A DNA stretch of 64,000 bases from Candidatus Uhrbacteria bacterium. Its GTDB lineage: Bacteria; Patescibacteriota; Patescibacteriia; UBA9934; UBA10169. Below the pieces are notes generated by a model, which made no database searches, was not told the DNA's origin, and saw only the letters and a program-made list of their open reading frames with translations. Position numbers and translations under genes: made by a program. Location of the stretch: NCBI GenBank assembly GCA_016187485.1, contig JACPJO010000002.1, forward strand, positions 27,912 through 91,911, in the 5' to 3' direction. Positions 5,082-60,225 of the stretch are shown here, piece after piece (positions within the stretch are counted from its first letter, which is position 1; each line of letters starts with the position of its first letter).

Positions 5082-7673
5082 ACCTCCGCTTTATACACGG
5101 CTTCTGTGTCCCCGGAACGTGGAGATGAGATGGAGGGACGGAGGGAAGCGCGTGGTGAACCCAACATGAACTACATCGTAGAACAATCGTTGCGGAAACA
5201 TCACACGCCATAAACCCCCTCTTAGGGTGCGTCTGATGTTCCCGCGATTCGCGGGAATTTTGTTTCACTACAGAGCATTGCTCCGGGCATCGAATCAGTG
5301 CTCTGGCGTGAAGGCCAGACGGAACCTTCACAATTTACACACCAATACAAACAATGTCGCACGCAGAAATGCGTGTGGCGATGGCATGGAAAAAGCCTCA
5401 ACTACAAGGCATGGGGAGTCAGCGTCGGAGTCGTACTTTTTGTACGACGACGAGCTGACGGGGCCCCATAACGCCGTAGATGAGGAATTTTTACATGCCA
5501 GATCTATACAGATAGTGGGTGAAGAGCATAAGGGCAGATGGTGGATGGCTCGACCATAGACGCCGATGAAGGACGTAGCAGCCTGCGATAAGCTTCGGGG
5601 AGGTGGCAAGCAACCTTTGATCCGGAGATCTCCGAATGGGGAAACCCGGTCTGAAGAAGTCAGATCATCCAACACTGAATACATAGGTGTTGGGAGGTTA
5701 CCTGGTGAAGTGAAACATCTCAGTAGCCAGAGGAAAAGAAAAAGATAGCTCGTTGTGTATACGAAGGTTCTCCATTGGGAGCTTTCGTATACAACAACGA
5801 GAACATTCCCCTAGTAGTGGCGAGCGAACGGGGAACAGTCTAAACTTCGTGGATGAAGCGTTGAACAAAGTGGGTATCATTGATATTCATCCGTTTGGCG
5901 TGAAAGGCAAGGGCCGTTGTCCACGGAGGGTTGCAAGATGCGCGCGCGTCTTTCCCTTGAAAGGCGACATGATCGTTGTGTTATAGGAGAATCTGCTGGA
6001 ACGCAGAACCAAAGAGGGCGAACGTCCCGTATCCAAAATATCAACACGACGTGTGGTGCGCATTCTTAAGTACCACGAGACACGAGAAATCTTGTGGGAA
6101 CCTAGCGCGACTATGTGCTAAGACTAAATACGTCTATGGATCGATAGTGAACAAGTACCGCGAGGGAAAGCTGAAAAGAACCCCGGAAGGGGAATGAAAT
6201 AGTTTCTGAAACCATCTGCTTACAAGGAATCGGAGTCCCTCCGTAGCCGCAAGGTGAAGAGGGATGACGGTGTTCCTATTGAAGAATGAGCCAACGAGTG
6301 TGCTGCATGTCGCCGGTTAAGTCCTCCGGGATGAAGCCAGAGTGAAAGCAAGCATTAACGTGCGTCTCTAGCAATGTTCAAGGATGAGTTTCTCATTCTT
6401 GAACATGGCTAGAAGGTGGCATGCACACGACCCGAAACCGGGTGACCTAACCATGACCAGGGTGAAGTCCCGCGAAAGCGGGATGGAGGCCCGAACTCAC
6501 GTGCTGTGCAAAACACGGAGACGAGTTGTGGTTAGCGGAGAAATTCCAATCGAACTCGGTAATAGCTGGTTCTCTCCGAGATAGCTTTAGGGCTAGCGTC
6601 GGTTACAGTCTGTTGGGGGTAGAGCACTGAATGGGACAACCGCCTTCGGGTAGGTGTCCTAACCAAACTCCGAATACCAGCAGATGATCCCGGCAGTCAG
6701 ACGATGGGGGCGAAGCTCCATACGTCGAAAGGGAAACAGCCCAGATCTCAAACTAAGGTCCCAAAATCATCGTTAAGTGTAAAAGGTGGTGAGAAGACTT
6801 ATACAGTCAGGAGGTTGGCTTAGAAGCAGCCATCCTTTAAAGAAAGCGTAACAGCTCACTGATCAAGTTTTCTTGCGCCAAAAATGAATCGGGGCTAAAC
6901 GGTGTACCGAAGTTGAGGATGTCCCGCCTTTGGCGGGACGTGGTAGGAGAGCATTCGTGTCAGCGCTGAAGCCATACTGCGAGGTGTGGTGGAGCGGCAC
7001 GAAGAGAGAATGTTGGCATAAGTAGCAAAAAGACGGGTGAGAACCCCGTCCGCCGCAAACCCAAGGTTTCCACAGCTACGCAAATCGTCTGTGGGTGAGT
7101 CGGGAGCTAAGGCGAGCCCGAAAGGGGTAGTCGATGCACAGCTGGTTAATATTCCAGCACTTCGTTTACGTTCTGATGGGGGGACGTTCCGTGTACCTTC
7201 CTGCGTCCTATGGCTATGACGTCAGGAACTCTGGAGTGGCTTGTAGGAAAATCCGCAAGCCGCAAGCTCCGGGGTTGTCGCAATCTCGGGTTACACCGAG
7301 GGAGAGGAGGGGAAGCGGAACCAAGAAAAGCCTCTAGGGTTAACGTAAACGAACCCGTACCGGAAACCGACACAGGTGGGTGGGCATGAATGTGCCAAGG
7401 CGTACGAGAGAATGATCGTTAAGGAACTAGGCAAAAAAGCGGCCGTAACTTCGGGATAAGGCCTGGTTGCTCCCGGGAGGGAGCGACCCGCAGCGAAAGA
7501 CGTCAAGCGACTGTTTACCAAAAACACAGGTCCCTGCAAAACCGTAAGGTGAAGTATAGGGGCTGATGCCTGGCCAGTGTCCGAACGTTAAGGAAGGGGG
7601 TCATGCCCGCAAGGGCGGCAGCCTTCGACTGAAGCGCGGATGAACGCCGGCGATAACTATAATCGTCCTAAGG

Positions 7674-7929
7674 TTTTCCGTATTTTGGCTAAATTTAGCG
7701 AAAGTACGGAGAAGGACTGGGACGATTACGGTGAGTGGGTAAACAAATGAAGTGCTGCCTCACTCTACAGTAATGTAGAGTTGGTCCAAACATGGCTATT
7801 TGCTGGGAACCAGTTGCCAACTGGGATCAGCAGGGAAGTCCTCCGTGGCGGGGACCCCTCAGAGACTAAACGCCGTGCCCCTGGTGCAATCAGGGTGAAG
7901 ATATAGTCCTCCGTCCAAAGGAAACGGAA
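7674..7929 (+). other. Intervening sequence in 23S at an E. coli L1917-equivalent site (probable small group I intron, no ORF)
   Basis: Conserved CCTAAGGT is separated from AGCGAAATTCC by about 256 nt of non-rRNA sequence. Confidence 0.45.
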
Positions 7930-7949
7930 AGCGAAATTCCTTGTCGGGT

Positions 7950-8656
7950 GAACCATGTTCCTCTGTGGTCGGAGAGAACTTGCCCGAGTATCGTGGTAAC
8001 ATGATACAAGCAATCCAGCTCATAACGGGGAATCCTCAATGAGGAAATCCCGTGGGAAGCCCCGCTAAAGGTGGGGCCCCGTAACGACTGACCCGAAAGG
8101 GGAGGTTCCGCAGGTGCGGGACAACACGCTGGCTCTTCCTGATAAGACCAACCTATGGAGATTAATCCATGGTATGTATCTGGATTCGTCGATGGTGAAG
8201 GGAGCTTTCTCGTTTCCTTTTCTGTTCGTCAAAAGATGACGATGGGAATTGAAGCGAGGCCAAGTTTCACCATCAGCCAACACAAGAGAAGTATAAATGT
8301 GCTAGAGCACATCAAGACATACTTCGGGTGTGGCACGATCCGTTACAACATCCATGATGATACATACAAATATGAAGTGAGAAGTCTGGGAGATCTTCTT
8401 TGGAAGATTATTCCGCACTTCGAGCAGTATCCTCTCAGAACGTTGAAGCAGAAAGACTTTGAAACGTTTCGAGATATTTGTTACCTCATGCACACGCAAC
8501 ACCATCGATGTTCGTCTGGTATTAGACAGATCATTGATGTCGCCTATCAAATGAACAATTTTGGGGCGAGGCGTTATACGAAAGAAGATCTCCTAAAGGT
8601 GGTGGGAAGATGAAGGTATAGTCTGAACATCATGGCAACATGATGACTAACATTGG
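7950..8656 (+). mobile_element. Intervening sequence in 23S at an L1931-equivalent site (probable group I intron) carrying a LAGLIDADG homing-endonuclease gene
   Basis: Conserved TTGTCGGGT is separated from AGTTCCGACCTGCACG by about 707 nt. It contains ORF 8155..8613. Confidence 0.55.
8155..8613 (+). CDS. LAGLIDADG-family homing endonuclease (single-motif, I-CreI-like)
   Basis: N-terminal [13 protein letters not shown] motif, about 150 aa. Lies wholly inside 23S intervening sequence B. Local GC is lower than in the flanking rRNA. Confidence 0.75.
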   Translation: MEINPWYVSGFVDGEGSFLVSFSVRQKMTMGIEARPSFTISQHKRSINVLEHIKTYFGCGTIRYNIHDDTYKYEVRSLGDLLWKIIPHFEQYPLRTLKQKDFETFRDICYLMHTQHHRCSSGIRQIIDVAYQMNNFGARRYTKEDLLKVVGR

Positions 8657-8688
<32 letters not shown>

Positions 8689-9169
8689 GACGACTGTCTC
8701 AACGATCAACTCGGCGAAATTGCAAGAGGAGTGAAGATGCTCCTTACTCGTAGTTAGACGAAAAGACCCCGTGAAGCTTTACTACAACTTGGTATTGGTT
8801 TCAGATTTCGCATGTTGAGCGTAGGTGGGAGCTTCGGCGCCAATGAGACACCACCCTTGCGTTATTTGAAGTCTAACTTCGGACCGTGAATCCGGTTCGA
8901 AGGACAGTATCTGGTGGGTAGTTTGACTGGGGCGGTAGCCTCCCAAAAAGTAACGGAGGCGTTTACAAAGGTTGGCTTAGCGCGGATGGAAATCGCGCTG
9001 AAAGGGCAAACCCACAAGCCAGCTTTACTGCAAGACTGACACGTCGCGCAGTCGCGAAAGCGGAAGTTAGTGATCCGACCGTACGACATAGGACGGCGGA
9101 AGCTCAACGGATAAAAGCTACTCCGGGGATAACAGGCTGATCAGGCCCAAGCGTCCACAGCGACGGCCT

Positions 9170-9210
<41 letters not shown>

Positions 9211-9241
9211 AAGAAGCTCCCAAGGGTTTGGCTGTTCGCCA

Positions 9242-9285
<44 letters not shown>

Positions 9286-10021
9286 GGACAAAACCGCGCT
9301 GTCTATAAATTCGACTATATGCTGGAAACCCTGAATGAGTCTCAACAGGAGTAGAGGCTCAAAGAATCTCACACTACGTGCTATGCTTATTAAATATGGC
9401 ACGTGAAAATGTGTTGAGTGCAGGCAATCAGCAGGGAAGATTACATCGTCTTCAACCGTGGTATATCAGTGGTTTTGTGGATGGGGAAGGAAGCTTTCAT
9501 GTGGCGCTCTATAAAGATGCACACATGAAGACGGGATGGAAAATCATCCCAGAATTCCACGTCTCCCAACGTATAAGCAGTCGCCAAGTTCTTGATAGGC
9601 TTGTGGACTTCTTTCGTTGTGGGTATGTAAAACCAAACCATAGAACAAGTTCTTCCGATTTGACGTACGTATATGTTGTACGGGATCGCGGAGATCTTCT
9701 AAAGAAAATCATCCCTTTCTTTCAGCGGCATAACCTCCAGACGGAGAAAGTAAAAGACTTTCAACTGTTTGCGAGAGTTGTACAGCTGATGGAAAAGGGG
9801 GAACACCGGAACACCAACGGAGTAAAAAAGATTTTCGAGATCGCATACCAGATGAATGGTGGCGGTCGGTATCGACGGAAAAAAATACAAGCGATGTAAA
9901 ACCCTCAGAGACTATATGTCGAATTCCGCCATTTGCGGAAAAGATATAGTCCGAACTGCATGGCGACATGCAGAGAACACAAGAAATTGTGTTCCTCCAC
10001 AATTGTGGAAGTAACATATTG
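9286..10021 (+). mobile_element. Intervening sequence in 23S at an L2593-equivalent site (probable group I intron) carrying a LAGLIDADG homing-endonuclease gene
   Basis: Conserved GTCGTGAGACAGT is separated from TCGGTCTCCTATC...CTAGTACGAGAGGACCGG by about 736 nt. It contains ORF 9378..9899. Confidence 0.55.
9378..9899 (+). CDS. LAGLIDADG-family homing endonuclease
   Basis: [16 protein letters not shown] motif. The probable start is the Met at 9396. About 170 aa, inside 23S intervening sequence C. Confidence 0.75.
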
Positions 10022-31963: not shown

Positions 31964-32716
31964 TTATCGGTCAACGGGGGGCAGGACACGCGTGGTCTGC
32001 CAGAGCACGTCAAAAAGGTTTTTCTGCAGCTCAAAGAGCCGATGGGACTCAACAATCATCCCGAAGGGCTCCTCCGTGGTTCCCATGTAGGCGACCTTGT
32101 TGTCGTAGAGGTACATAGTGAGGTGGAACGTCATTTTCCCTGGCGCAATATGCACCTCGCGGTTCTCCTTAATGCTTGAAGGGTACTTGGCGCCGACTTC
32201 CGTTGCCTCAGAACGGATGACATGGAGGCGTTTCCCAGAAGTAATACGTCGAGTGGTGTAGTCTGCGAACCAATCTTGGCCAGCGAGAAGATCGATATCA
32301 GCGACGGAGAGAATAGCGCAGAGTTGCCGGCTCGTGTTGTTGAGCGTGTCCTCAAAGACGGTCTTTACTCCAGCGGCCCCTTCGTAGAGCCGTATGCGTG
32401 GTTGGTCGGAGGTCGTACGGAATAGGGAGAGAAGTTCCGGAAGAGCGCGCGCGGCTTTCTCTTGTTTCTCTCGAAGCATGGCTTCTAAACGTGTGGGCTT
32501 TTCTGCGCGATAGGTTCGGCGGCGCCCGATTGTGCTGTAACTTGCTAGACCCATGACAACCAGTTGTTGGAGAACTTCATGGGCGGTTGTCCGGGGGAGG
32601 CCTACTTCGCGACCGATGCGCTCTGCTGTCCCTGCGCCAACACGAAGCAAAGCGAGATAAATTTCCCCTTTTGTCTTTGGCAAACCAATTTCTCCGAGGG
32701 TTTCTTTGAGTGACAT
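31964..32716 (-). CDS. TrmB-family-like transcriptional regulator (wHTH plus sensor domain)
   Basis: N-terminal LGEIGLPKTKGEIYLALLRVGAGTAERIGREVGLPRTTAHEVLQQLVVMGL matches the TrmB-type winged helix. About 250 aa. Confidence 0.5.
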   Translation of the reverse strand: MSLKETLGEIGLPKTKGEIYLALLRVGAGTAERIGREVGLPRTTAHEVLQQLVVMGLASYSTIGRRRTYRAEKPTRLEAMLREKQEKAARALPELLSLFRTTSDQPRIRLYEGAAGVKTVFEDTLNNTSRQLCAILSVADIDLLAGQDWFADYTTRRITSGKRLHVIRSEATEVGAKYPSSIKENREVHIAPGKMTFHLTMYLYDNKVAYMGTTEEPFGMIVESHRLFELQKNLFDVLWQTTRVLPPVDR

Positions 32717-32875
32717 GAGTGGAACAAACGAGACTTACACACTTTCGTCGGAACTTTCCGACGACCATTATTGCATGGAAGTACTTATAAATGCAATTTT
32801 CCTACATATAGGAACTTACATATGTCGGAAATATACTTCCACTTTTGCCTCACCTAAGGTACGATCGGCACTTGT

Positions 32876-34609
32876 ATGAAGTCCAAAACACCAAACTTTG
32901 ATGAGAGGATTGAGGAACTGTTAAAAAAATTGGTGCCAGGCACCAGAGTGTGTAAGAAAACAGGAGAGACTTGGGAGCTTACCCAGGAAGAAATTGAATG
33001 GTGCCGGCATTTTCGTGTACCGCCGTCGGATGTAAGCCCACTCGCACGTCTGCGTATGCTCACGGCCTTTTTTGTGGGCTACCAGTGGTGGAACAATAAA
33101 AGCGCGAAAGATGGGAGGACGCTTGTGAGCTCCACGCATCCGGCGAGTGGTGTGAAGATTCTCCCAGACGAGGAGTGGCTTCAGCAGGACTTTTCTTCTC
33201 TTCGACGACCTATTCATTCGGACACCTCTGTTTTTCGTGTGCTCCAAGAGCTGTCCCGAGAGATCCCCTTTATGGCGTTTCGCAATGCGGTACCGCCAGA
33301 AAACTCCATCTCTACAATCTCCATGGGGGACCAAAACAGTTATTTCATGAACGCTTGTCGATCGAAGAATTCCTTTTTTGGGATGAATGCGCTCGACACG
33401 GAAGATTCTGCAGAAGTTTATCAGTCAGGAAAGATTGTCGGCTCCTACAATGTGGTACACGCCGAGCGTCTTTACCAATGTCGGTTTGTGCAAGAGTCGC
33501 GTGATTGTATGAGCAGCGCATTTCTTTTTGATTGTCGAGACTGCGAGCATTGTTTTATGGCGACGAACAAACGACGGGCAAAATATGTTTGGAAGAATGA
33601 GCAGCTTTCGCGGCAGGAGTATGAAAAACGTATAGCCGAAGTGGACCTGTCTTCCCGCGTGCGGCTTGAGGCGTACAAAACAGAGTTTCTGGAGTTGATA
33701 CGGACACAAGGAATCTGGCCCGAGAACTTCAACGAGAAAGCGGAACAAAGCTCTGGAGAGTATTTACAGGAAGTCACCAACTGCCATTTTTGCTATAACA
33801 ACAATTATGGGTGCCGTGACCAGCTTTGGTGCGCGTACATGTTTCATGAAACATTCCAAAATGCATTCGACGTCGGGCTTTTCTACGGAACGAACAACTG
33901 CTGGGGTTGTTCAACGGGGTCGCGAAGCGCGAACTGTCTCTTCAGTTATCTTGTCGTAAATTGCCAACGCGTGGAATACTCCATGCATTGTTACGATTGC
34001 GAGAACTGTTTTGGATGCGTGGGGCTTAACCGCAAGAAGTTTCACATCTTCAATACGCCATGTACGGAAGAGGAGTATTATCGGTTGCTCGATGAGATAA
34101 AGTGCGGGATGCTTGAGCGACGCGAATACGGGGAATTTCTTCCCGCCACTCTTTCGCCTACGCGCTTTTTGGATTCCGGCGCTGCGCTCTTTCTTTTGGC
34201 AGATGAGGTAGCGGGGCGGCAACTTGGTGCATTAGAGTATGCGCCTGAATCTGCAGGGGCAAGTGGAGACCCCTCGATTGTCCTTTTACCGGTGGGTGAT
34301 ATTCCCGACAGCATTTCCGATCCCTCGGTGGAGGCGCTTTCCGGCAAGCTCTTTTTTGACGAGTCTCTCGATCGACGTTTTACTTTCCTTAAACCAGAGG
34401 TGGAGTTTTATCGCGCGATGAAGATCGGTCCGCCTCGTGATCACTTTATTGCTCGTGTGCGCGATCTTAGCTTTCGCGCAAATTCAGGTGTATTTGAGGA
34501 CACCATCTGCGCCAAATGCTCACGGAATATTCTCGTCACGAAGAATAAAACATTTCCTTCACGCACTATATATTGCCGCGCATGTTACCAAGACACTCTT
34601 TCCGCGTAA
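32876..34609 (+). CDS. Cysteine-rich cytoplasmic protein with repeated CxxC/CxC modules, unknown function
   Basis: 577 aa with no signal peptide. Recurring units include ...CRFVQESRDCMSSAFLFDCRDCEHCF..., NCHFCYNNNYGCRDQLWCAYMF, NCWGCSTGSRSANCLFSYLVVNCQRVEYSMHCYDCENCFGCVGL and C-terminal CAKCSRN...YCRACYQ. Confidence 0.5.
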   Translation: MKSKTPNFDERIEELLKKLVPGTRVCKKTGETWELTQEEIEWCRHFRVPPSDVSPLARLRMLTAFFVGYQWWNNKSAKDGRTLVSSTHPASGVKILPDEEWLQQDFSSLRRPIHSDTSVFRVLQELSREIPFMAFRNAVPPENSISTISMGDQNSYFMNACRSKNSFFGMNALDTEDSAEVYQSGKIVGSYNVVHAERLYQCRFVQESRDCMSSAFLFDCRDCEHCFMATNKRRAKYVWKNEQLSRQEYEKRIAEVDLSSRVRLEAYKTEFLELIRTQGIWPENFNEKAEQSSGEYLQEVTNCHFCYNNNYGCRDQLWCAYMFHETFQNAFDVGLFYGTNNCWGCSTGSRSANCLFSYLVVNCQRVEYSMHCYDCENCFGCVGLNRKKFHIFNTPCTEEEYYRLLDEIKCGMLERREYGEFLPATLSPTRFLDSGAALFLLADEVAGRQLGALEYAPESAGASGDPSIVLLPVGDIPDSISDPSVEALSGKLFFDESLDRRFTFLKPEVEFYRAMKIGPPRDHFIARVRDLSFRANSGVFEDTICAKCSRNILVTKNKTFPSRTIYCRACYQDTLSA

Positions 34610-39506: not shown

Positions 39507-39534
39507 GGCCCCGCATGAAGCGAGGCCTGGGGCC

Positions 39535-40013
39535 GGGAAACGTATAAGCCGAATTCTGTTCTCCCATCACTCTTTGCAGAGCGTTAGGAGAGGTGACTAT
39601 CTATCTTGACTGCTCATTGCTGAACAGCTCCGCATGATCCTTGCGAACCATGCACGCGAGCGACCAAATTTGCTCTTGCACCGAAAAGGGTTTACCACAC
39701 CTCTGCGTCACCGCAGGGCGAATCGCGTAGCCCCGAAGGACATCGCGAAACTTTTCACGTTTCCCCCTACATAGCTCCGTGAGGAGCGACGTGGGGTAGT
39801 ATTGTCTCTGTGACACTTTCCCTAGAGTTCTCTCTGAGCCCGAAGAGCAATCTCTCCGGCAAAGCCGGATCCGGCTTTGCCGGACAGCTCCTCGATTCCA
39901 GATTTCCTCTGGCCGCCGTTAGCGGCTTTTCTTGTCTTCCTCTCTTGCGAAAGGGTAGGGTGTTCGGACTTTCCTCTCCCGCTTTTAACAGGAGCAGTCA
40001 CCGCGTTTCCTGG
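39535..40013 (-). ncRNA. rnpB: RNase P RNA (bacterial type, with insertions)
   Basis: Minus strand carries GGAAACG (P1 5') ...GAGAGGAAAGTCCGAAC (P4 5' strand, universal GGAAAGTCCG)... and ...GAGAACAGAATTCGGCTTATACGTTTCC (P4 3' strand ACAGAA-CGGCTTA plus P1 3'). It fills a 550-bp gap with no ORF between wbaP and trpS. Confidence 0.65.
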
Positions 40014-45544: not shown

Positions 45545-46318
45545 GTGTTCTTCCATGCGTCGTGTCGCGCGATCCTCCATATGATACCATGGTACCACAT
45601 GGAGGATTCCAAGCGCTGGCTCCCGATTGTCGTGACGGGCATCTTGCTTTTGCTTGCGGGATTGTTTGTGCTTCGCGTCGTCGTTTTTTACAGCCAGATT
45701 CGCAAAGGCGACGACCAACAGCGTTCTTTCGGCGCGTCCGCCGAGCTCACACGCTCGCCCGCGCTGGCGGCAGCGATCCGTTCCACTCCCGCAGATGAAG
45801 TGTATAGCGTGGAGGACGACGATGACCCCATGCTTGGGGGCAAGGACGCACGGCTCACTATTGTGGAGTTTGCCGACTTTGGCTGCCCGTACTCGCGCAA
45901 GGCCTCGTCATCCATGCGCGCCCTTGCACTTACCTACGGCGAGAACATCCGCTATATCTATCGCGATTTTCCGATCACCGAGATTCATCCCGACGCGTTT
46001 TTAGCGGCGCAGGCAGGACAATGTGCCAACGAGCAGGATAAGTTCTGGGTCTATCACGACGCACTCTACCAACACCAAGAGGACCTTTCTCGCGCGGCGC
46101 TCCGTTCGTATGCACAGGCGGTAGGGATGGATGTCGGAGCATTTGATCGTTGTCTTGCCAGTGGGCGCTACCGCCAGGAAGTGGAAAAAGATTACGCGGA
46201 AGGTGTGGCGGCGGGCGTCGTGGGAACACCCACATTCTTTTTCAATGGGCGCCGTGTGGAAGGAGCCATCCCCCTCGAGATTCTTCGTTCGCTCATAGAC
46301 ACTTTTCTTAAGGTATGA
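45545..46318 (+). CDS. DsbA-family thiol:disulfide oxidoreductase (membrane-anchored)
   Basis: N-terminal TM, then thioredoxin fold with CPYS active site (EFADFGCPYSRKA) and ...GTPTFFFNGRRVEG. The stop overlaps the start of the next gene (ATGA). Confidence 0.6.
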   Translation: MFFHASCRAILHMIPWYHMEDSKRWLPIVVTGILLLLAGLFVLRVVVFYSQIRKGDDQQRSFGASAELTRSPALAAAIRSTPADEVYSVEDDDDPMLGGKDARLTIVEFADFGCPYSRKASSSMRALALTYGENIRYIYRDFPITEIHPDAFLAAQAGQCANEQDKFWVYHDALYQHQEDLSRAALRSYAQAVGMDVGAFDRCLASGRYRQEVEKDYAEGVAAGVVGTPTFFFNGRRVEGAIPLEILRSLIDTFLKV

Positions 46319-50648: not shown

Positions 50649-52382
50649 TTGCTATTTTCCCCTCTTATGAAAAAGACATTTCTCGCCGTTATTCTTGTGG
50701 CCATCTTGCTGCCCGCGGGCATTGGTCGTGCAGATAACCCCACTTGGCAGGTTTTAACTGCCACGGATGTATGGGATCGTGGAACACACCGCGTGGAGCG
50801 TTTGGATCTCCCGCGCATTGTGGAAGGTCCCCTCAACTTGGGTGACAATGTGGTTGTACAGACTGTTGCTTCCAGTTGTGTGAGTGCTGCCTGCGATGAA
50901 CGCGATGCCTATATTCTTCGCAACGGCTCGGCCATCCGCGTGCCTAACGTGCCCAAGAGCGCGCTTTCGCTTGCAGAGTTTAATGCGAACGGCGGGCGTG
51001 TTGTGTGGGCGGTGCCGGTGCCTTCGGACACGGGTCGTTGGGATGTGATTGAACTGGATCTTGCCAGCGGACAAAAAGTAAAAATCGCCGGGAACTTTTT
51101 CCTCGGCAATGTGGAAACCATGAAAGTTCGTGTGGCGGACGGAGAGATTTTCCTGAATCCTACGTTCATTTCTGGCGGAAATACCTTCAAGAACGCTGGG
51201 GTGTTCCGCTATGATCGTGCGCGCGGCGATGTGGTGAATGTTACACAGCGCTTCAACGCTCAGCACGAGGAACTTCTCGACGTGGATCTTGCCAACAACC
51301 GTATTCTCACGAAGATGTCGTTTGCCTCTGGGGAGAAACAACTTTGGCTTACCAAAATCACCTCGGAATATTTGAATGGCGAAGCCAACCGTATCATCGG
51401 CACATGGACGCCGGCGCATGAGGACCTTGTAGGCGGACACTTCCGTCCAGATGGTTCGGTCGAATACTTCCGCATGTACACGCGCAGCCTTTCTTCGACG
51501 AACGGGGTCGTGGATACATTCCAGACAACGGCGCTTGGCGAGCAGATGTCGTGGTACCGTCCGGCAAGCGATGCCGTCACTATTTCTGGTGACAACATGG
51601 TGTGGATCAACAATGATAATGAGCTTACCGTTTCCAATGAACAGTTCGGCACGATCCGTGTGGGCACTATTGGTCCGCGCGCGCCGCGTGTCGTTGGGAC
51701 AGATGTGTACTTTGCCACGCCCGAGGGCATGGGAATGGTCTATCGTCTCAAAGATGGAGTGAGCACGCTTCTTGATTACATGCCGACGGATCGCTTCAAA
51801 GTGGCGATGGTGGGTGTGGACGAGGCGGGAACAGTTCGTTTTGGCTCTACAAAGAACCCCGACGAGTCCATTTCGATGGGCGTGGGAACGGATGCGGCCC
51901 TTTCTGATGAGCGCCATGTCTATTGGCGCGGCGTGGACGGAGCGATCTACGAAGCAACGCTCTCGACAGATCCAGGCGTAAGCACAACGGGAAAGATGGA
52001 GGCCGTGAAAGTGGAGAACAATCCGACGGTGTTTCTGACCGATGGCGTGAATCGCTGGACCTTCACGAATGAGGATGTCTATCGTACGTGGTTTGACTCT
52101 ATGGACACGGTAAAGACGATCTCTGCGACACGACTTGCATACTTGCGTGATCGCGGCACGGCACAATTTGCGCCGGGCACAAAAGTAAAAGCAAAAGATG
52201 ACGCGCGTCTGTATGTGGTCGGCCGGGACAATAAGGCCCACTGGATCGTGAACGAGACGGTTGCCGATGCCGTGTTTGGATCCTCGTGGAACAAGGACGT
52301 CAAAGAAATTGATACCGCGGCGATGGTTTCCTACCAACAGGGCCGCACCATTGATGACGCTCTCGATATTGACCTGATCTAA
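50649..52382 (+). CDS. Secreted hypothetical protein (577 aa)
   Basis: Signal peptide MKKTFLAVILVAILLPAGIGRA. Beta-rich with no recognised motif. A candidate promoter TTGACA-17-TATTTT sits at about 50631..50659. Confidence 0.45.
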   Translation: MLFSPLMKKTFLAVILVAILLPAGIGRADNPTWQVLTATDVWDRGTHRVERLDLPRIVEGPLNLGDNVVVQTVASSCVSAACDERDAYILRNGSAIRVPNVPKSALSLAEFNANGGRVVWAVPVPSDTGRWDVIELDLASGQKVKIAGNFFLGNVETMKVRVADGEIFLNPTFISGGNTFKNAGVFRYDRARGDVVNVTQRFNAQHEELLDVDLANNRILTKMSFASGEKQLWLTKITSEYLNGEANRIIGTWTPAHEDLVGGHFRPDGSVEYFRMYTRSLSSTNGVVDTFQTTALGEQMSWYRPASDAVTISGDNMVWINNDNELTVSNEQFGTIRVGTIGPRAPRVVGTDVYFATPEGMGMVYRLKDGVSTLLDYMPTDRFKVAMVGVDEAGTVRFGSTKNPDESISMGVGTDAALSDERHVYWRGVDGAIYEATLSTDPGVSTTGKMEAVKVENNPTVFLTDGVNRWTFTNEDVYRTWFDSMDTVKTISATRLAYLRDRGTAQFAPGTKVKAKDDARLYVVGRDNKAHWIVNETVADAVFGSSWNKDVKEIDTAAMVSYQQGRTIDDALDIDLI

Positions 52383-54926: not shown

Positions 54927-55318
54927 CAAGTGACCTTTCGTATCTTCTCATCCTTGCCGTGCTGTGGTTTTTGTTCTATTGGGTGCTTGGCGGGGCGTTT
55001 TTTGCCGTCATGTCCGTCTTTCGGCTTGGACGTTTAAAGAAGGCGCGGTTCTCGTGCCTCTTTACGCTTTTTACTGCAGCCTCGGCATTCGGCGCCGCGT
55101 ATTTCGGTCTCCGATGGGCCAACGAATCCTCGCGTGAATGCATTTCCCTCGCTCAATCAAACCTCGAAGGATTTGTGGGATTCTTCGGGTGCAGTCTTGT
55201 CTCACTTACCATGAGTTTTCTGGCTGGTGCGCTTGCCGTCATCGTACTTGGGTGGCTTGCCATGGGACTTTCGTCACTCAAGATTCTTTTGCCAGGAGTT
55301 GATGAAGAGAAGGAATAG
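54923..55318 (+). CDS. Hypothetical integral membrane protein (131 aa, four TM)
   Basis: Highly hydrophobic with no motif. Confidence 0.4.
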   Translation: MTSDLSYLLILAVLWFLFYWVLGGAFFAVMSVFRLGRLKKARFSCLFTLFTAASAFGAAYFGLRWANESSRECISLAQSNLEGFVGFFGCSLVSLTMSFLAGALAVIVLGWLAMGLSSLKILLPGVDEEKE

Positions 55319-56504
55319 GTCTCCCATCAAGCTCCGCACTTCGCACCGTATCGAGCAGACGGCGGAATTCCGGGCCGGGGGAAAACCCTTGTGCCAGGAG
55401 ATCATCACCTGTGAGGATAGGAGGCAGAGCAGAAGCGCGGAAAACAGAAAGGAGCCGCTCGGCCGCGCGAGCGTTTTTTGTTTCTTGAAGAAAGGGGACG
55501 AGGAGGGCGCGATGGGGGAGGAATGTGCGTTCGATCTCGGCGGAAGAAAATTTCTGCAGGCCGTGTTGATGGACAAGAAGAGCGACACGAATCGCTTTTC
55601 GGTTGACGGCGAGGCGCCAGTGTTTCAACCACGCGTCATAGCGGGGAGGATCGGTGTCCTTTCCGCAGAGGGCAAAGATGAGCGTAGGGTCCGTGACAGA
55701 GGTTTTAGGTACTGCCAGAGGAAGGCCGTCCCAGAGGACTTTATTCACGTGAGCGAAGGTTAGTAGTTCGTAGGCGCGCGGAGGGTCTGCGACAAACATC
55801 CGGAGCAATTCTTGCCCGACCATCTGGTGCGCGACAAGGGGACGGCCGTGGGAGTCGGTGTGGGCCAAGCGTGGAGCGAGCGTCTCGATAGCGTGCCACG
55901 TTTTGGGTTCGATGGTTGCAGAAAGCGCGCAAGCAAAGCGGATGGCGCGCAGGATACGCGTGGAATCTTCCTTGAGTCGTGCGAGGGGGTCGCCTACGGC
56001 ACGAATGATGCGTGCCTTGAGGTCTTGTTCCCCGCCGCACGGGTCAATCAATGTCTCGGTACGCCATTCCCATGCCATCGCGTTGACGGTAAAGTCACGT
56101 CTACGCAGATCTTCCTCAATGGGAAGGAACGGATCGCTTTGCACGGAAAAATTTTTGTAGCCGCCGTCTTGTTGTGTGGAGATTTCTGTGCGCGGCAGGG
56201 CGATTTCTATTTTCGGATTACGCGGGTTGGCGTAGGGAATGAACCCGAACACGCCAAAACGGGAGCCCTCTAACTTTACGATGCCGTGCGATTGGAGCCA
56301 CTCCGCGAGATCCTTCATCAAAACGCCGGTGACGACAAGATCGAGGTCGTGAAGGGGGACGCCCCGCAAGGCATCACGTACCGCACCACCTACGACATAC
56401 ACGTTCGCAGAGGGGTAATGTTTGAGAAGCTCATCAACCCACACGAGCGCCGTGAGGTGCTTGAAAGGGAACAGACAGTGATTATTGGGATGTTGTAGGG
56501 GCAC
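55278..56504 (-). CDS. cca: tRNA nucleotidyltransferase / CCA-adding enzyme (class II polymerase-beta-type head)
   Basis: VYVVGGAVRDALRG...DLDLVV head-domain motifs, ...RDFTVNAMA... and the body domain. 408 aa. Confidence 0.65.
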   Translation of the reverse strand: MPLQHPNNHCLFPFKHLTALVWVDELLKHYPSANVYVVGGAVRDALRGVPLHDLDLVVTGVLMKDLAEWLQSHGIVKLEGSRFGVFGFIPYANPRNPKIEIALPRTEISTQQDGGYKNFSVQSDPFLPIEEDLRRRDFTVNAMAWEWRTETLIDPCGGEQDLKARIIRAVGDPLARLKEDSTRILRAIRFACALSATIEPKTWHAIETLAPRLAHTDSHGRPLVAHQMVGQELLRMFVADPPRAYELLTFAHVNKVLWDGLPLAVPKTSVTDPTLIFALCGKDTDPPRYDAWLKHWRLAVNRKAIRVALLVHQHGLQKFSSAEIERTFLPHRALLVPFLQETKNARAAERLLSVFRASALPPILTGDDLLAQGFSPGPEFRRLLDTVRSAELDGRPIPSLHQLLAKES

Positions 56505-56686
56505 AATTTTCGAAACGCACTTACCTATTTATGGGAAAAGATTTACGTGCACACTCCTGGGGCTATCATCATTATTTCCATTGGTTTATCACTAGTATCC
56601 TCGTTCGGTTATCATTATTATTCCCCATTGGTAGATTTTCATGATTACCTCACACAAGTGCCGATCGGCCCTTGCATGAAGTTTTG

Positions 56687-57220
56687 CTAACAGTGTTCTT
56701 CTACGGTAAATACTCGGATCCACCGTGCGTGACGGGATTTTCGAAAGAGGTCTGTGATGGGTTCTGCGGCGTCAAAAGGGGAAATCCACACGCTTCTTTG
56801 TATTGGCATGAATCCGGCAGATTCAAGGAAACCACGCAGAAGCTTTCGGAGAGATCGGTGCGACTCTGGAATATCAAATACCACCATACACATTTTTTCT
56901 TCCGGGAGGAGGTCGGCATCGAAGACGCGGAGCCGGAAAATTTCTTGCCACCCCTTTTCTGTAATGGCCACCTCATATTTTTTAGCGGCACGCCGTGTTT
57001 TGATAAATCGTAATCGGCGAAGCCGGTCTAATGCTTGCTGTCGAGCCTTTCTTTTTGCCCGGGCATGGGCAATATGTAGTCCGTCGTAACCGTAGTAGTT
57101 GAGTGTGCGCCGCCCTTGTCGGCTCATCAACAAAAAGTAAGCTTCTCCCAAGTGAGAGAGTTCAGAAAGTATTCGTGCGGTCTCCGACCGATCTTTCAGG
57201 TGATAGAGCCGTGAGAGCAT
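56687..57220 (-). CDS. PaaX-like / Cas2-fold-like small regulator (wHTH plus VFDIPE motif domain)
   Basis: The probable start is MLSRLYHL. The ORF-track start at 57286 would read through the 44-bp palindrome. The N-terminal region is winged-helix-like. The central MVVFDIPESHRSLRKLLRGFLESAGFMPIQRSVWISP resembles the PaaX middle domain and the Cas2/VapD beta-alpha-beta core. Confidence 0.4.
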   Translation of the reverse strand: MLSRLYHLKDRSETARILSELSHLGEAYFLLMSRQGRRTLNYYGYDGLHIAHARAKRKARQQALDRLRRLRFIKTRRAAKKYEVAITEKGWQEIFRLRVFDADLLPEEKMCMVVFDIPESHRSLRKLLRGFLESAGFMPIQRSVWISPFDAAEPITDLFRKSRHARWIRVFTVEEHC

Positions 57221-57236
57221 ATTTGCGTAGATTCGA

Positions 57237-57280
57237 TCGAACCTCACACAAGGGCCGATCGGCCCTTGTGTGAGGTTCGA
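57237..57280. repeat. Perfect 44-bp palindrome TCGAACCTCACACAAGGGCCGA|TCGGCCCTTGTGTGAGGTTCGA
   Basis: Read directly from the sequence. An imperfect copy of the core (CCTCACACAAGTGCCGATCGGCCCTTGCATGAAG) lies at 56647..56680, immediately after the stop of the same gene. Confidence 0.9.
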
Positions 57281-57310
57281 ATACAATTGAAGAAACTATA
57301 TCAGGTATTC

Positions 57311-57397
57311 CTTCACGTGTTGAGCAGAGACCGAAACATCTTCACGTGTTGAGCAGAGACCAAAACATCTTTACGTGTTGAGCAGAAACACAAAATC
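57311..57397. repeat. Three tandem, spacer-less 29-bp direct repeats (CTTCACGTGTTGAGCAGAGACCGAAACAT, then x2 variants)
   Basis: Copies at 57311-57339, 57340-57368 and 57369-57397. The third is the most diverged. Each contains the CACGTG palindrome. An A-rich tract follows. Confidence 0.85.
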
Positions 57398-57594
57398 CTG
57401 CTTGAGCAAAAATAAAAAACACCCCGCTTGGACGGAGAATCCTTTACCTCTCGACTTCATGCACTCGACAAACGTACAGACTTTACTCAATCTATTCGAC
57501 GAGCTTTGCTTCTCGCGGTCGAAGAACATGACCCATCGACGAGCTCAGGGTCATACTGAGTTTATCGAAGCATGAGCGAGCAAAGCGAGTCGAA

Positions 57595-57671
57595 TGGTGG
57601 GCGGCACAAGAGTCGAACTTGTGACCTTCACAATGTCAATGTGACGCTCTAACCAACTGAGCTAGCCGCCC
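57595..57671 (-). tRNA. tRNA-Val (anticodon GAC), CCA encoded
   Basis: Reverse complement GGGCGGC TA GCTC AGTTGGTTA GAGC G TCACA TTGACAT TGTGA ... GCCGCCC A CCA. Confidence 0.85.

Positions 57672-57789: not shown

Positions 57790-60225
<2,436 letters not shown>

Follow-up and report, generated by a model that had tools for sequence, protein, structure and literature searches.

The controller (C) proteins of restriction-modification systems and the type II antitoxins are small dimeric DNA binders with a dyad operator near their own start; these operators diverge fast, are 20–35 bp in size and lie upstream only. PaaX is the phenylacetyl-CoA-responsive repressor of the paa operon. It represses its own promoter Px via a 39-bp-wide dyad of the form TGATTC-N27-GAATCA (PMC9493321). 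The locus described here is a block between a tRNA-Val gene and a cca-type gene in a 64-kb stretch of DNA (hereafter the window, with positions counted from its first letter) from the genome of a member of Candidatus Uhrbacteria (candidate phyla radiation, CPR/Patescibacteria). It encodes a 177-aa protein of a kind that is known already, namely a PaaX-like repressor with a Cas2 fold, and the gene is bracketed by two similar palindromes. By analogy to PaaX and its 39-bp dyad, we read the cassette as an autorepressor gene with a private operator pair, with a probability of about 0.5. It is probably a self-controlling switch rather than an inserted element, since the layout recurs in most of the relatives examined, often beside DNA-repair genes.

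The central features of the locus are the following:

57220..56687, minus strand: mini-PaaX gene, an open reading frame (ORF) for 177 aa with the motif VFDIPE...QRSVW
57237-57280: 5′ palindrome copy, a perfect 44-bp dyad centred on CCGATCGG, found by dyad search and folding
56647-56683: 3′ palindrome copy, degenerate, 89% identical to the 5′ copy, dyad 14/18
32847-32882, plus strand: third, decayed palindrome copy, 28/36 identical

The protein contains the domain PF20803 (PaaX_M, "PaaX central Cas2-like domain") at residues 111–174, with a score of 58.4 bits against a cut-off of 24 and an E value of 8e-16. The same domain is present in 20 of 20 close homologues. Matches to Cas2 models are confined to residues 110–151; TIGR01573 yields 24.5 bits, which equals its cut-off, and the Pfam model PF09827 yields 18.3 bits, which is below its cut-off of 23.8. 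Since Cas2 models score at or near the threshold, members of this family could be mis-called as Cas2. The PaaX equivalog model TIGR02277 gives 14.4 bits compared to a cut-off of 264.55. Because the protein fails this model and stops right after the Cas2-like domain, where PaaX_C (PF08223) would begin, we refer to it as mini-PaaX. According to the domain models and the structure prediction, it appears to be a two-domain protein made of a winged helix and a PaaX_M/Cas2-like domain, without PaaX_C; it would correspond in function to the DNA-binding and dimerisation half of PaaX but is not an orthologue of PaaX.

An AlphaFold model obtained from 20 homologues (predicted local distance difference test, pLDDT, 82; predicted template modelling score, pTM, 0.73) features N-terminal helices, a winged-helix-like unit at residues ~50–101 (helix, two strands, helix) and a ferredoxin-like domain at residues 109–174 with the topology beta-alpha-beta-beta-alpha-beta. 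When compared to the PDB with Foldseek, the model ranked PaaX of E. coli (8a39) first and Rv0674 (3kfw) second, followed by Cas2 structures. All 177 columns were aligned to 8a39 with a query-normalised TM-score of 0.38, while target-normalised TM-scores of 0.5–0.6 were obtained for Cas2. The resemblance to PaaX and to the Cas2 fold, which had been proposed from a sequence motif in an earlier reading of the same DNA (the original prediction), is hence borne out by both domain and structure comparison.

Invariant columns in the alignment of homologues are G90, V113, F115, D116, P118, E119, R125, R129, L132, F137, Q141, S143 and V144. The Cas2-type motif is thus invariant, including E119 and D116, the Asp with which strand 1 ends. 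Neither His nor Tyr is among the invariant residues, so that a signature of HUH or catalytic-Tyr enzymes is missing. The alignment favours the ATG at 57220 as start codon over a TTG further upstream in the same frame (57286), from which translation would run through the palindrome. HYW18_00885 of Candidatus Uhrbacteria has exactly the same protein sequence (100% identity), and the copy in the window as well as every named close homologue is annotated only as "hypothetical protein". The family comprises 3,293 clusters (50% identity, E ≤ 1e-10), the best 150 of which all have a length of 105–239 aa.

The 5′ palindrome consists of 22 + 22 nt, which are 100% complementary and have a loop of zero. 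As a single-stranded DNA hairpin it folds with −25.8 kcal/mol (z = −10.6), compared to −9.3 kcal/mol (z = −3.1) for the 3′ copy. The centres of these two copies are the only places in the 64 kb with the sequence CCGATCGG; the core hexamer CGATCG is neither avoided nor enriched in the window (26 observed, ~30 expected). The 5′ copy lies behind the predicted promoter, with its end 17 nt ahead of the ATG. At the other end of the gene, the 3′ copy begins 4 nt past the stop codon and is directly adjacent to the −35 element of the predicted cca promoter. The palindromes do not show the combination of GC-rich stem, 3–8-nt loop and T-tract that marks an intrinsic terminator; the terminator scan calls neither copy, no T-run follows either of them, and the terminator-like site of the block is located at 57437–57422. 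The third copy, 24 kb away and lineage-specific, does not fold into a hairpin any more. A Cys-rich ORF of 577 aa begins inside its right arm (ATG at 32876), 11 nt downstream of the dyad centre.

For comparison, related loci (cited by their L numbers) were collected from species-representative genomes (25) and metagenomes (45), and a few more via exact-protein look-ups. A strict criterion required both flanks of the gene to share a repeat centred on CG-NN-CG at an identity of at least 20/30. It was passed by 50 of 68 testable loci, corresponding to 38 distinct palindrome pairs, whereas all of the 241 control ORFs from these loci failed it. On looser inspection of the first set, the pair was recognised in 18 of 20 loci, including several that had failed the strict criterion. 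A dyad search with an unconstrained centre found long zero-loop palindromes beside the gene in most of the first 20 and in most of the 70 loci.

Across the loci, the palindromes range from 24 to 46 bp in length and have a lineage-specific sequence; perfect arms of 18–23 bp are found among them. Nearly all centres are of the type CG-NN-CG, mostly CGATCG, but also CGGCCG, CGTACG, CGGTCG and CGAACG; a single small clade has CTATAG. The 5′ and 3′ copies of any given locus repeat each other in direct orientation. Measured from its centre, the 5′ copy mostly precedes the start codon by 3–53 nt; for 9 of the 38 pairs the distance is 10–11 nt, so that the ATG falls within the right arm. The 3′ copy is found at −14 to +57 relative to the stop codon (38 non-redundant loci) and often contains it. 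The 3′ copies are more perfect than the 5′ copies, which are often 60–80% complementary per position. The layout persists down to a protein identity of 27%, in Paceibacterota, Harrisonbacteria and others. Two paralogues in one metagenome-assembled genome (MAG; L002 and L007) have their own palindrome each.

A frequent form of the right arm is cTTATG, whose ATG begins 11 nt past the centre (56676–56690 on the plus strand of the window, and many 5′ copies). In 9 of 38 loci, and likewise at the third copies of the window and of L013, it serves as the actual start codon; in the remaining loci it is out of frame or opens a 4-codon ORF only. The mirrored left arm, CATAAg, resembles a −10 box. The contig of L071 (3647–4198) ends exactly at the centre of its 3′ palindrome, and the ends of L001 and L005 were noted likewise. 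Palindromes probably break short-read assemblies, and for this reason members of the family would often be found at contig ends and the 3′ copy would be under-counted.

The gene is present in one copy per locus, and no second copy was found in the 64-kb window. In 8 related genomes with a nucleotide identity of 80–92%, the unit occupies one syntenic site, without inversion or empty site, and no target-site duplications are definable. A strain lacking the insert, with which the borders of the element were to be defined according to the original prediction, is not among these 8 genomes. Third copies of the palindrome are rare in the 20-kb flanks of the other loci. Within one Uhrbacteria lineage (L006/L026/L027), the mini-PaaX gene is located between uvrA and uvrC and a palindrome precedes each of the three genes (245–276, 2963–2994 and 3511–3542 in L006); the copy before uvrA is a perfect 32-bp palindrome, which differs from the others by symmetry-restoring changes. 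L013 has an extra copy at the start of a WecG-like ORF. The third copy of the window is missing at the starts of the orthologous 577-aa ORFs in L076 and L077 (61% and 56% identity, same context with a divergent TrmB gene), and the paralogue locus of this ORF in the same genome (9.5 kb) shows no such palindrome either. Based on the single gene copy, the synteny and the rare, unconserved extra palindromes, the unit belongs to the gene; it is not a multi-copy repeat and does not mark out a conserved regulon. A spread in the manner of miniature inverted-repeat transposable elements (MITEs), for which a check had been suggested, was not seen. The alternatives expected beforehand, a multi-copy MITE or a one-off local operator, both failed, as the palindromes are conserved as a class in many contexts.

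The 577-aa protein (32876–34609) is Cys-rich and has no Pfam domain. It belongs to a large family in Uhrbacteria, whose members hardly vary in length (~575–583 aa), with several paralogues per genome; 296 matches were obtained at E ≤ 1e-10, including HYW18_00770 and HYW18_03940 of the same genome. A second ORF of 577 aa beside uvrA (50649–52382) was considered as a paralogue and rejected, as it is unrelated. An unrelated 36-bp near-perfect palindrome, ATCCTCCATATGATACCATGGTACCACATGGAGGAT (16/18), is located at 45572–45607 at the start of a DsbA/thioredoxin-like gene (45545–46318).

The evolution of the arms was analysed with 37 distinct 3′ copies, which had been picked by the similarity of 5′ and 3′ copies and not by symmetry. 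Pairing was observed in 85.4% of the cells, compared to 47% in shuffles and 36–41% with the partners slid. Changes on both sides were found for 17 of 18 arm pairs, and the covariation score was 0.907 versus 0.21. Across lineages only the centre of the palindrome is conserved; its columns are fixed by the selection rule in this set, and the conservation of the centre is shown independently by the dyad searches. The two copies in L069, L053, L045 and L072 differ from each other by compensated changes, each still being a perfect palindrome. Mismatches on the sense strand are G:T in 26 and A:C in 41 cases for the 5′ copies, and 21 and 18 for the 3′ copies, so there is no excess of G:U. The lack of a G:U bias and the continuation of the palindromes through the centre without a loop argue that a constraint or homogenising mechanism acts at the level of DNA and not on a sense-strand RNA hairpin. 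Quasi-palindrome template switching can create symmetry mutationally. The excess symmetry of the arms may be due to cruciform or hairpin formation or to homogenisation by such template switches.

By contrast, a 20-bp operator-like dyad of a TrmB-type regulator, TCGTCGGAACTTTCCGACGA at 32745–32764, is conserved as sequence in the orthologous loci L076 and L077. It sits between the TrmB-like gene (31964–32716, minus strand) and the divergent 577-aa ORF and is probably the operator of the TrmB-type protein.

The genomic contexts across the family are very varied. The genes uvrA and/or uvrC adjoin the mini-PaaX gene in L001, L005, L006/L026, L031, L033 and L035. Other neighbours of the repair type are uvrD (L002, L053), radA and recG (L010), recJ (L041), polA (L017) and a uracil-DNA glycosylase (UDG) gene (L054), and further neighbours are a NUDIX gene (L003), a ComM-like gene (L052) and a Xer-like recombinase gene (L069). 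A putative ogt (MGMT) gene upstream in L020 was recognised from reading the translated flank only. Repair families were counted at 19 of the 97 positions next to the gene, but at only 4 of 302 positions further away (Fisher p = 2e-9). This count is biased, as the families to be searched had been chosen among the neighbours, and some of the loci are related to each other. Despite this bias, about ten different repair contexts remain. In the window itself, uvrA is located ~6 kb away, with no palindrome of the mini-PaaX family near it. The neighbours within ~3 kb are cca, Gmk, small membrane ORFs and a MopE-repeat protein, with no integrase among the called genes; cas1 is likewise not among the called neighbours within this distance, the rest of the window ORFs not having been scanned for it. 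No paa (phenylacetate) catabolic genes were found among the neighbours in the window or in the relatives. The MopE-repeat gene (57790–60225) encodes an 811-aa secreted protein with 11 Cys/Asp-rich metal-binding repeats of the MopE type. Apart from the 29-bp units, tandem-like repeats near the cassette are limited to the 132-bp coding repeats of this gene.

On the minus strand, the order of the block is tRNA-Val, trailer, terminator-like hairpin, 29-bp units, promoter-like site, 44-bp palindrome and regulator ORF, followed by the 3′ palindrome copy, two direct repeats and the cca-type gene. The remaining features are:

57323-57295, minus strand: predicted sigma-70-like promoter of the mini-PaaX gene, TCAACA-17 nt-TATAGT with an upstream TG, consensus match only
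57311-57397: three 29-bp tandem units with a CACGTG core in each, identity 100/97/76%, TRF score 140
57402-57419: fourth, partial TTGAGC unit beyond the tandem array
57437-57410, minus strand: terminator-like hairpin (57437-57422) plus T-tract, from the terminator scan
57438-57594, minus strand: trailer of tRNA-Val, 157 nt, TCGA-rich and structured according to folding
57595-57671, minus strand: tRNA-Val(GAC), intact
56564-56586 and 56610-56632, minus strand: two direct repeats of ~23 nt with an AATAAT −10-like box in each
56642-56614, minus strand: predicted cca promoter ATGAAA-17 nt-AATAAT, consensus match
55278..56504, minus strand: cca, gene of a nucleotidyltransferase of the CCA-adding/poly(A) polymerase family (PF01743, 78.5 bits)

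Every element of the architecture given in the original prediction is recovered at its stated place. The perfect 44-bp palindrome, its degenerate copy at 56647 (which extends to 56683), the gene with its motif and the three spacer-less 29-bp repeats with CACGTG were all found again, the latter with a fourth, partial unit added. The two direct repeats, then given as about 25 bp, measure ~23 nt. The A-tract turned out to be the T-tract of the minus-strand terminator-like hairpin, and the imperfect inverted repeats up to the tRNA (57494–57510 / 57579–57595) lie within the tRNA trailer.

A search allowing 3 mismatches found the 29-bp unit in 3 copies compared to 0.06 expected; for the direct repeat of ~23 nt, 2 copies compare to 0.05 expected. 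No counterpart of the 29-bp unit was found in the 70 related loci, which makes it lineage-specific, and the array gives no hairpin signal (z = 0.55). The −35 element of the predicted mini-PaaX promoter lies in the promoter-proximal unit, and from this position the array is best described as a putative iterated upstream promoter element, the proximal unit of which supplies the −35. The gene cca is located downstream of the mini-PaaX gene in the same direction and is a possible second target of the 3′ palindrome. On the tRNA side, the terminator-like hairpin is predicted to end the tRNA-Val transcript before the promoter of the regulator. The trailer has a minimum free energy of −66.7 kcal/mol (z = −3.5 versus shuffles) and no Rfam match, and contains TCGACGAGCT twice in direct orientation in addition to the inverted repeats. 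Possible identities are a co-transcribed small RNA and a decayed repeat; the trailer is probably not part of the regulator unit. Apart from the tRNA, the Rfam search of the block (E ≤ 10) returned only spurious miRNA-hairpin matches on the palindrome. Elsewhere in the window, the 23S rRNA gene (5518–9317) has a length of 3,800 nt versus 2,925 nt of the model, with a group I intron at 7731–7928, and the RNase P RNA (39529–40013) has 485 nt versus 367 nt, with a palindromic insertion at 39852–39887. No match to 16S rRNA was reported in the window.

The block is best explained as an ordinary locus, passed on by vertical inheritance, of a CPR-wide protein family whose small members have two domains. 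Its mode of action, as we infer it, comprises binding, repression, cooperation between the two sites and, if any exists, a link to DNA damage. Both palindromes would be binding sites of the protein itself. In a dimer, the Cas2-like core would keep the two winged helices at a wide distance, similar to PaaX on its dyad. Bound to the 36–44-bp dyad between promoter and ATG, it would block its own transcription, with the 5′ copy as the main operator. The 3′ copy may serve as a second operator, either for cooperation across ~575 bp, for insulation or for the control of a co-directional downstream gene, candidates for which are cca in the window and uvrC, uvrD or NUDIX genes elsewhere. The original prediction had listed an autoregulated repressor with iterated operators among its readings. 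The autorepressor part of it is the best supported, while the likely operators are the palindromes and not the 29-bp repeats, which have no counterpart in relatives and mainly overlap the predicted −35.

Several observations weigh against an autorepressor with two operators. The N-terminal winged helix of PaaX as modelled in Pfam (PF07848) has no match in the 177-aa protein, and the promoter positions are consensus guesses only. Some of the relatives' loci have terminator, palindrome and ATG in such close succession that a separate promoter would not fit. In ~9 of 21 loci the downstream gene is convergent, which rules out a promoter operator at the 3′ copy there. The extra sites are rare and not kept at orthologous genes, so that no real regulon is visible, and the spacing of 5′ and 3′ copies shows no helical phasing (Rayleigh p > 0.1). 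In a clade with near-identical proteins and an almost invariant winged-helix segment, the arms still differ by paired, mutually compensating substitutions, and the two copies of L049 do not even have the same arm type. Since the arms change by compensation under a near-invariant winged helix, many arm positions are not read as sequence, though their symmetry is kept. The palindromes are also longer and more perfectly symmetric than recognition by a protein needs.

The latter points, together with the repair neighbourhood, allow for a structure-dependent explanation, in which the palindromes act as cruciforms or single-strand hairpins and the Cas2-fold protein recognises, and perhaps nicks, their shape and the CG-NN-CG tip. 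Instead of a classical operator pair, the unit would then sense or act on the topology, replication or damage of DNA, in connection with repair genes. We regard this as possible, though rather unlikely. It fits the compensation in 17 of 18 arm pairs, which persists with an unchanged DNA-binding segment, the perfect arms of 18–23 bp and the hairpin of −25.8 kcal/mol, the conservation of the centre alone across lineages, the invariant Cas2-type motif with D116 and E119, and the frequency of repair families at adjacent positions (19/97 versus 4/302). However, the symmetry could be made by template switching alone, and PaaX-family proteins are known as repressors that bind double-stranded DNA. Many 5′ copies are imperfect, the 3′ copy of the window is a weak hairpin and the third copy none, and the count of repair genes is biased by the choice of families. 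A more specific version, which we consider slightly less probable again, takes the palindromes as cruciform or hairpin elements recognised by a Cas2-fold protein outside CRISPR (clustered regularly interspaced short palindromic repeats), either in a repair-coupled module for DNA topology or damage or as a domesticated counterpart of repetitive extragenic palindromes (REP) and their associated tyrosine transposases (RAYT). Hairpins at the level of RNA, with the 5′ copy as a leader stem that hides the start and the 3′ copy as a terminator or stabiliser, are weakened by the tests and appear unlikely. Relatives in the Cas2 and VapD families have RNase activity, so the protein might bind or cleave such hairpins; the covariation of base pairs, the more perfect 3′ copies, their position few nt from the stop in most loci and the ATG in the right arm of 9 of 38 5′ copies would suit this role. 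Yet there is no G:U excess over A:C, no T-tract and no call by the terminator scan, and the arms meet without an unpaired loop, a property that an RNA hairpin does not need. A leader stem and a terminator need not share their sequence, yet the copies match within each locus, and a perfect 22-bp stem over the start codon would block translation altogether.

A selfish cassette bounded by hairpins, similar to the insertion sequences IS200/IS605 or to REP/RAYT, or a domesticated remnant of it, in which the Cas2-fold protein would act on the palindromes at its own ends and these would occasionally seed copies, was likewise weakened, and we give it even less credit than the RNA hairpins. Size and layout resemble the IS200 type, with a hairpin, a gene of ~175 aa and a second hairpin in ~640 bp in total. 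The ends diversify fast between lineages, are specific for each paralogue in one MAG and occur in varied contexts, and there are sporadic extra copies (32847 in the window, L006 and L013), of which the one in the window is missing from orthologous sites. Such a cassette is difficult to reconcile with one gene copy per locus and per 64-kb window, the rarity of extra palindromes, and a stable syntenic site at 80–92% identity without empty or inverted sites. The protein lacks an HUH/Tyr signature, has no match in PHROGs and only weak Cas2 matches in PADLOC, and target-site duplications are not definable. The other two readings of the original prediction, a remnant of an element integrated at tRNA-Val and a minimal nucleic-acid-targeting, CRISPR-like module, are effectively excluded. 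The position next to tRNA-Val, a G + C content of the block (0.44–0.50) below that of the flanks and the weak similarity to Cas2 had spoken for them. The unit is found in dozens of relatives, while a tRNA is present in the flanks of only 3 of 26 sequences (the first 25 loci and the window). Neither integrase nor cas1 is among the called neighbours, there is no repeat-spacer array in the window, the tandem units are spacer-less and the Cas2 cut-offs are reached marginally at best. As a candidate att repeat, a 12/15-nt match of the 3′ part of the tRNA to 56500–56514 was rejected, being at chance level. The tRNA-Val gene is a neighbour and not an integration scar.

Members of the CPR/Patescibacteria have small genomes and their regulation is largely uncharted, and the mini-PaaX family is large. 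The palindrome-gene-palindrome signature provides a direct experimental handle, with one small protein and one 40-bp DNA. It raises the question of what keeps 20-bp arms symmetric while their sequence drifts, and why the unit so often adjoins uvrA, uvrC, uvrD, recG, recJ, polA and UDG genes. The association of a Cas2-like fold with palindromes on either side of its gene, in a context other than CRISPR, is also informative on the uses of this fold. A description of the palindrome-gene-palindrome architecture was not found in the accessible full-text literature. What appears to be new is the truncated CPR-wide subfamily, combined with conserved palindromes that bracket its own genes and keep their symmetry in evolution, and with DNA-repair genes as frequent neighbours.

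Compared to the described systems, the locus is most similar to PaaX of E. coli and Pseudomonas (8a39, 3l09), the best structural match, which shares the PF20803 domain and has a winged-helix region before it, as predicted for mini-PaaX. The 39-bp width of the PaaX dyad is comparable to the 36–46-bp dyads of mini-PaaX loci, and a wide dyad (44 bp in the window; presence of the site only) is located between the predicted promoter and the ATG. Mini-PaaX is distinguishable from PaaX by its length of 177 aa versus 305 in the 8a39 chain, by the absence of PaaX_C, which is reported to bind phenylacetyl-CoA, and of paa genes nearby, and by a dyad that is palindromic throughout, with a CG-NN-CG centre, compensated arms and a second copy at the stop codon. 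It shares with Cas2 and VapD the ferredoxin-like fold and the beta1-alpha1 motif (hydrophobic-x-D, then Q-x-S-V-W/F), but is fused to a predicted winged helix and shows no sign of spacer acquisition. As in IS200/IS605 and REP/RAYT, a single small gene has similar palindromes on both sides that can form hairpins, and the stems show covariation between lineages; unlike in these, the protein is not an HUH/Y1 enzyme and the unit is single-copy, syntenic and stable. In contrast to C proteins and antitoxins, no partner toxin or restriction-modification gene is visible at the mini-PaaX locus.

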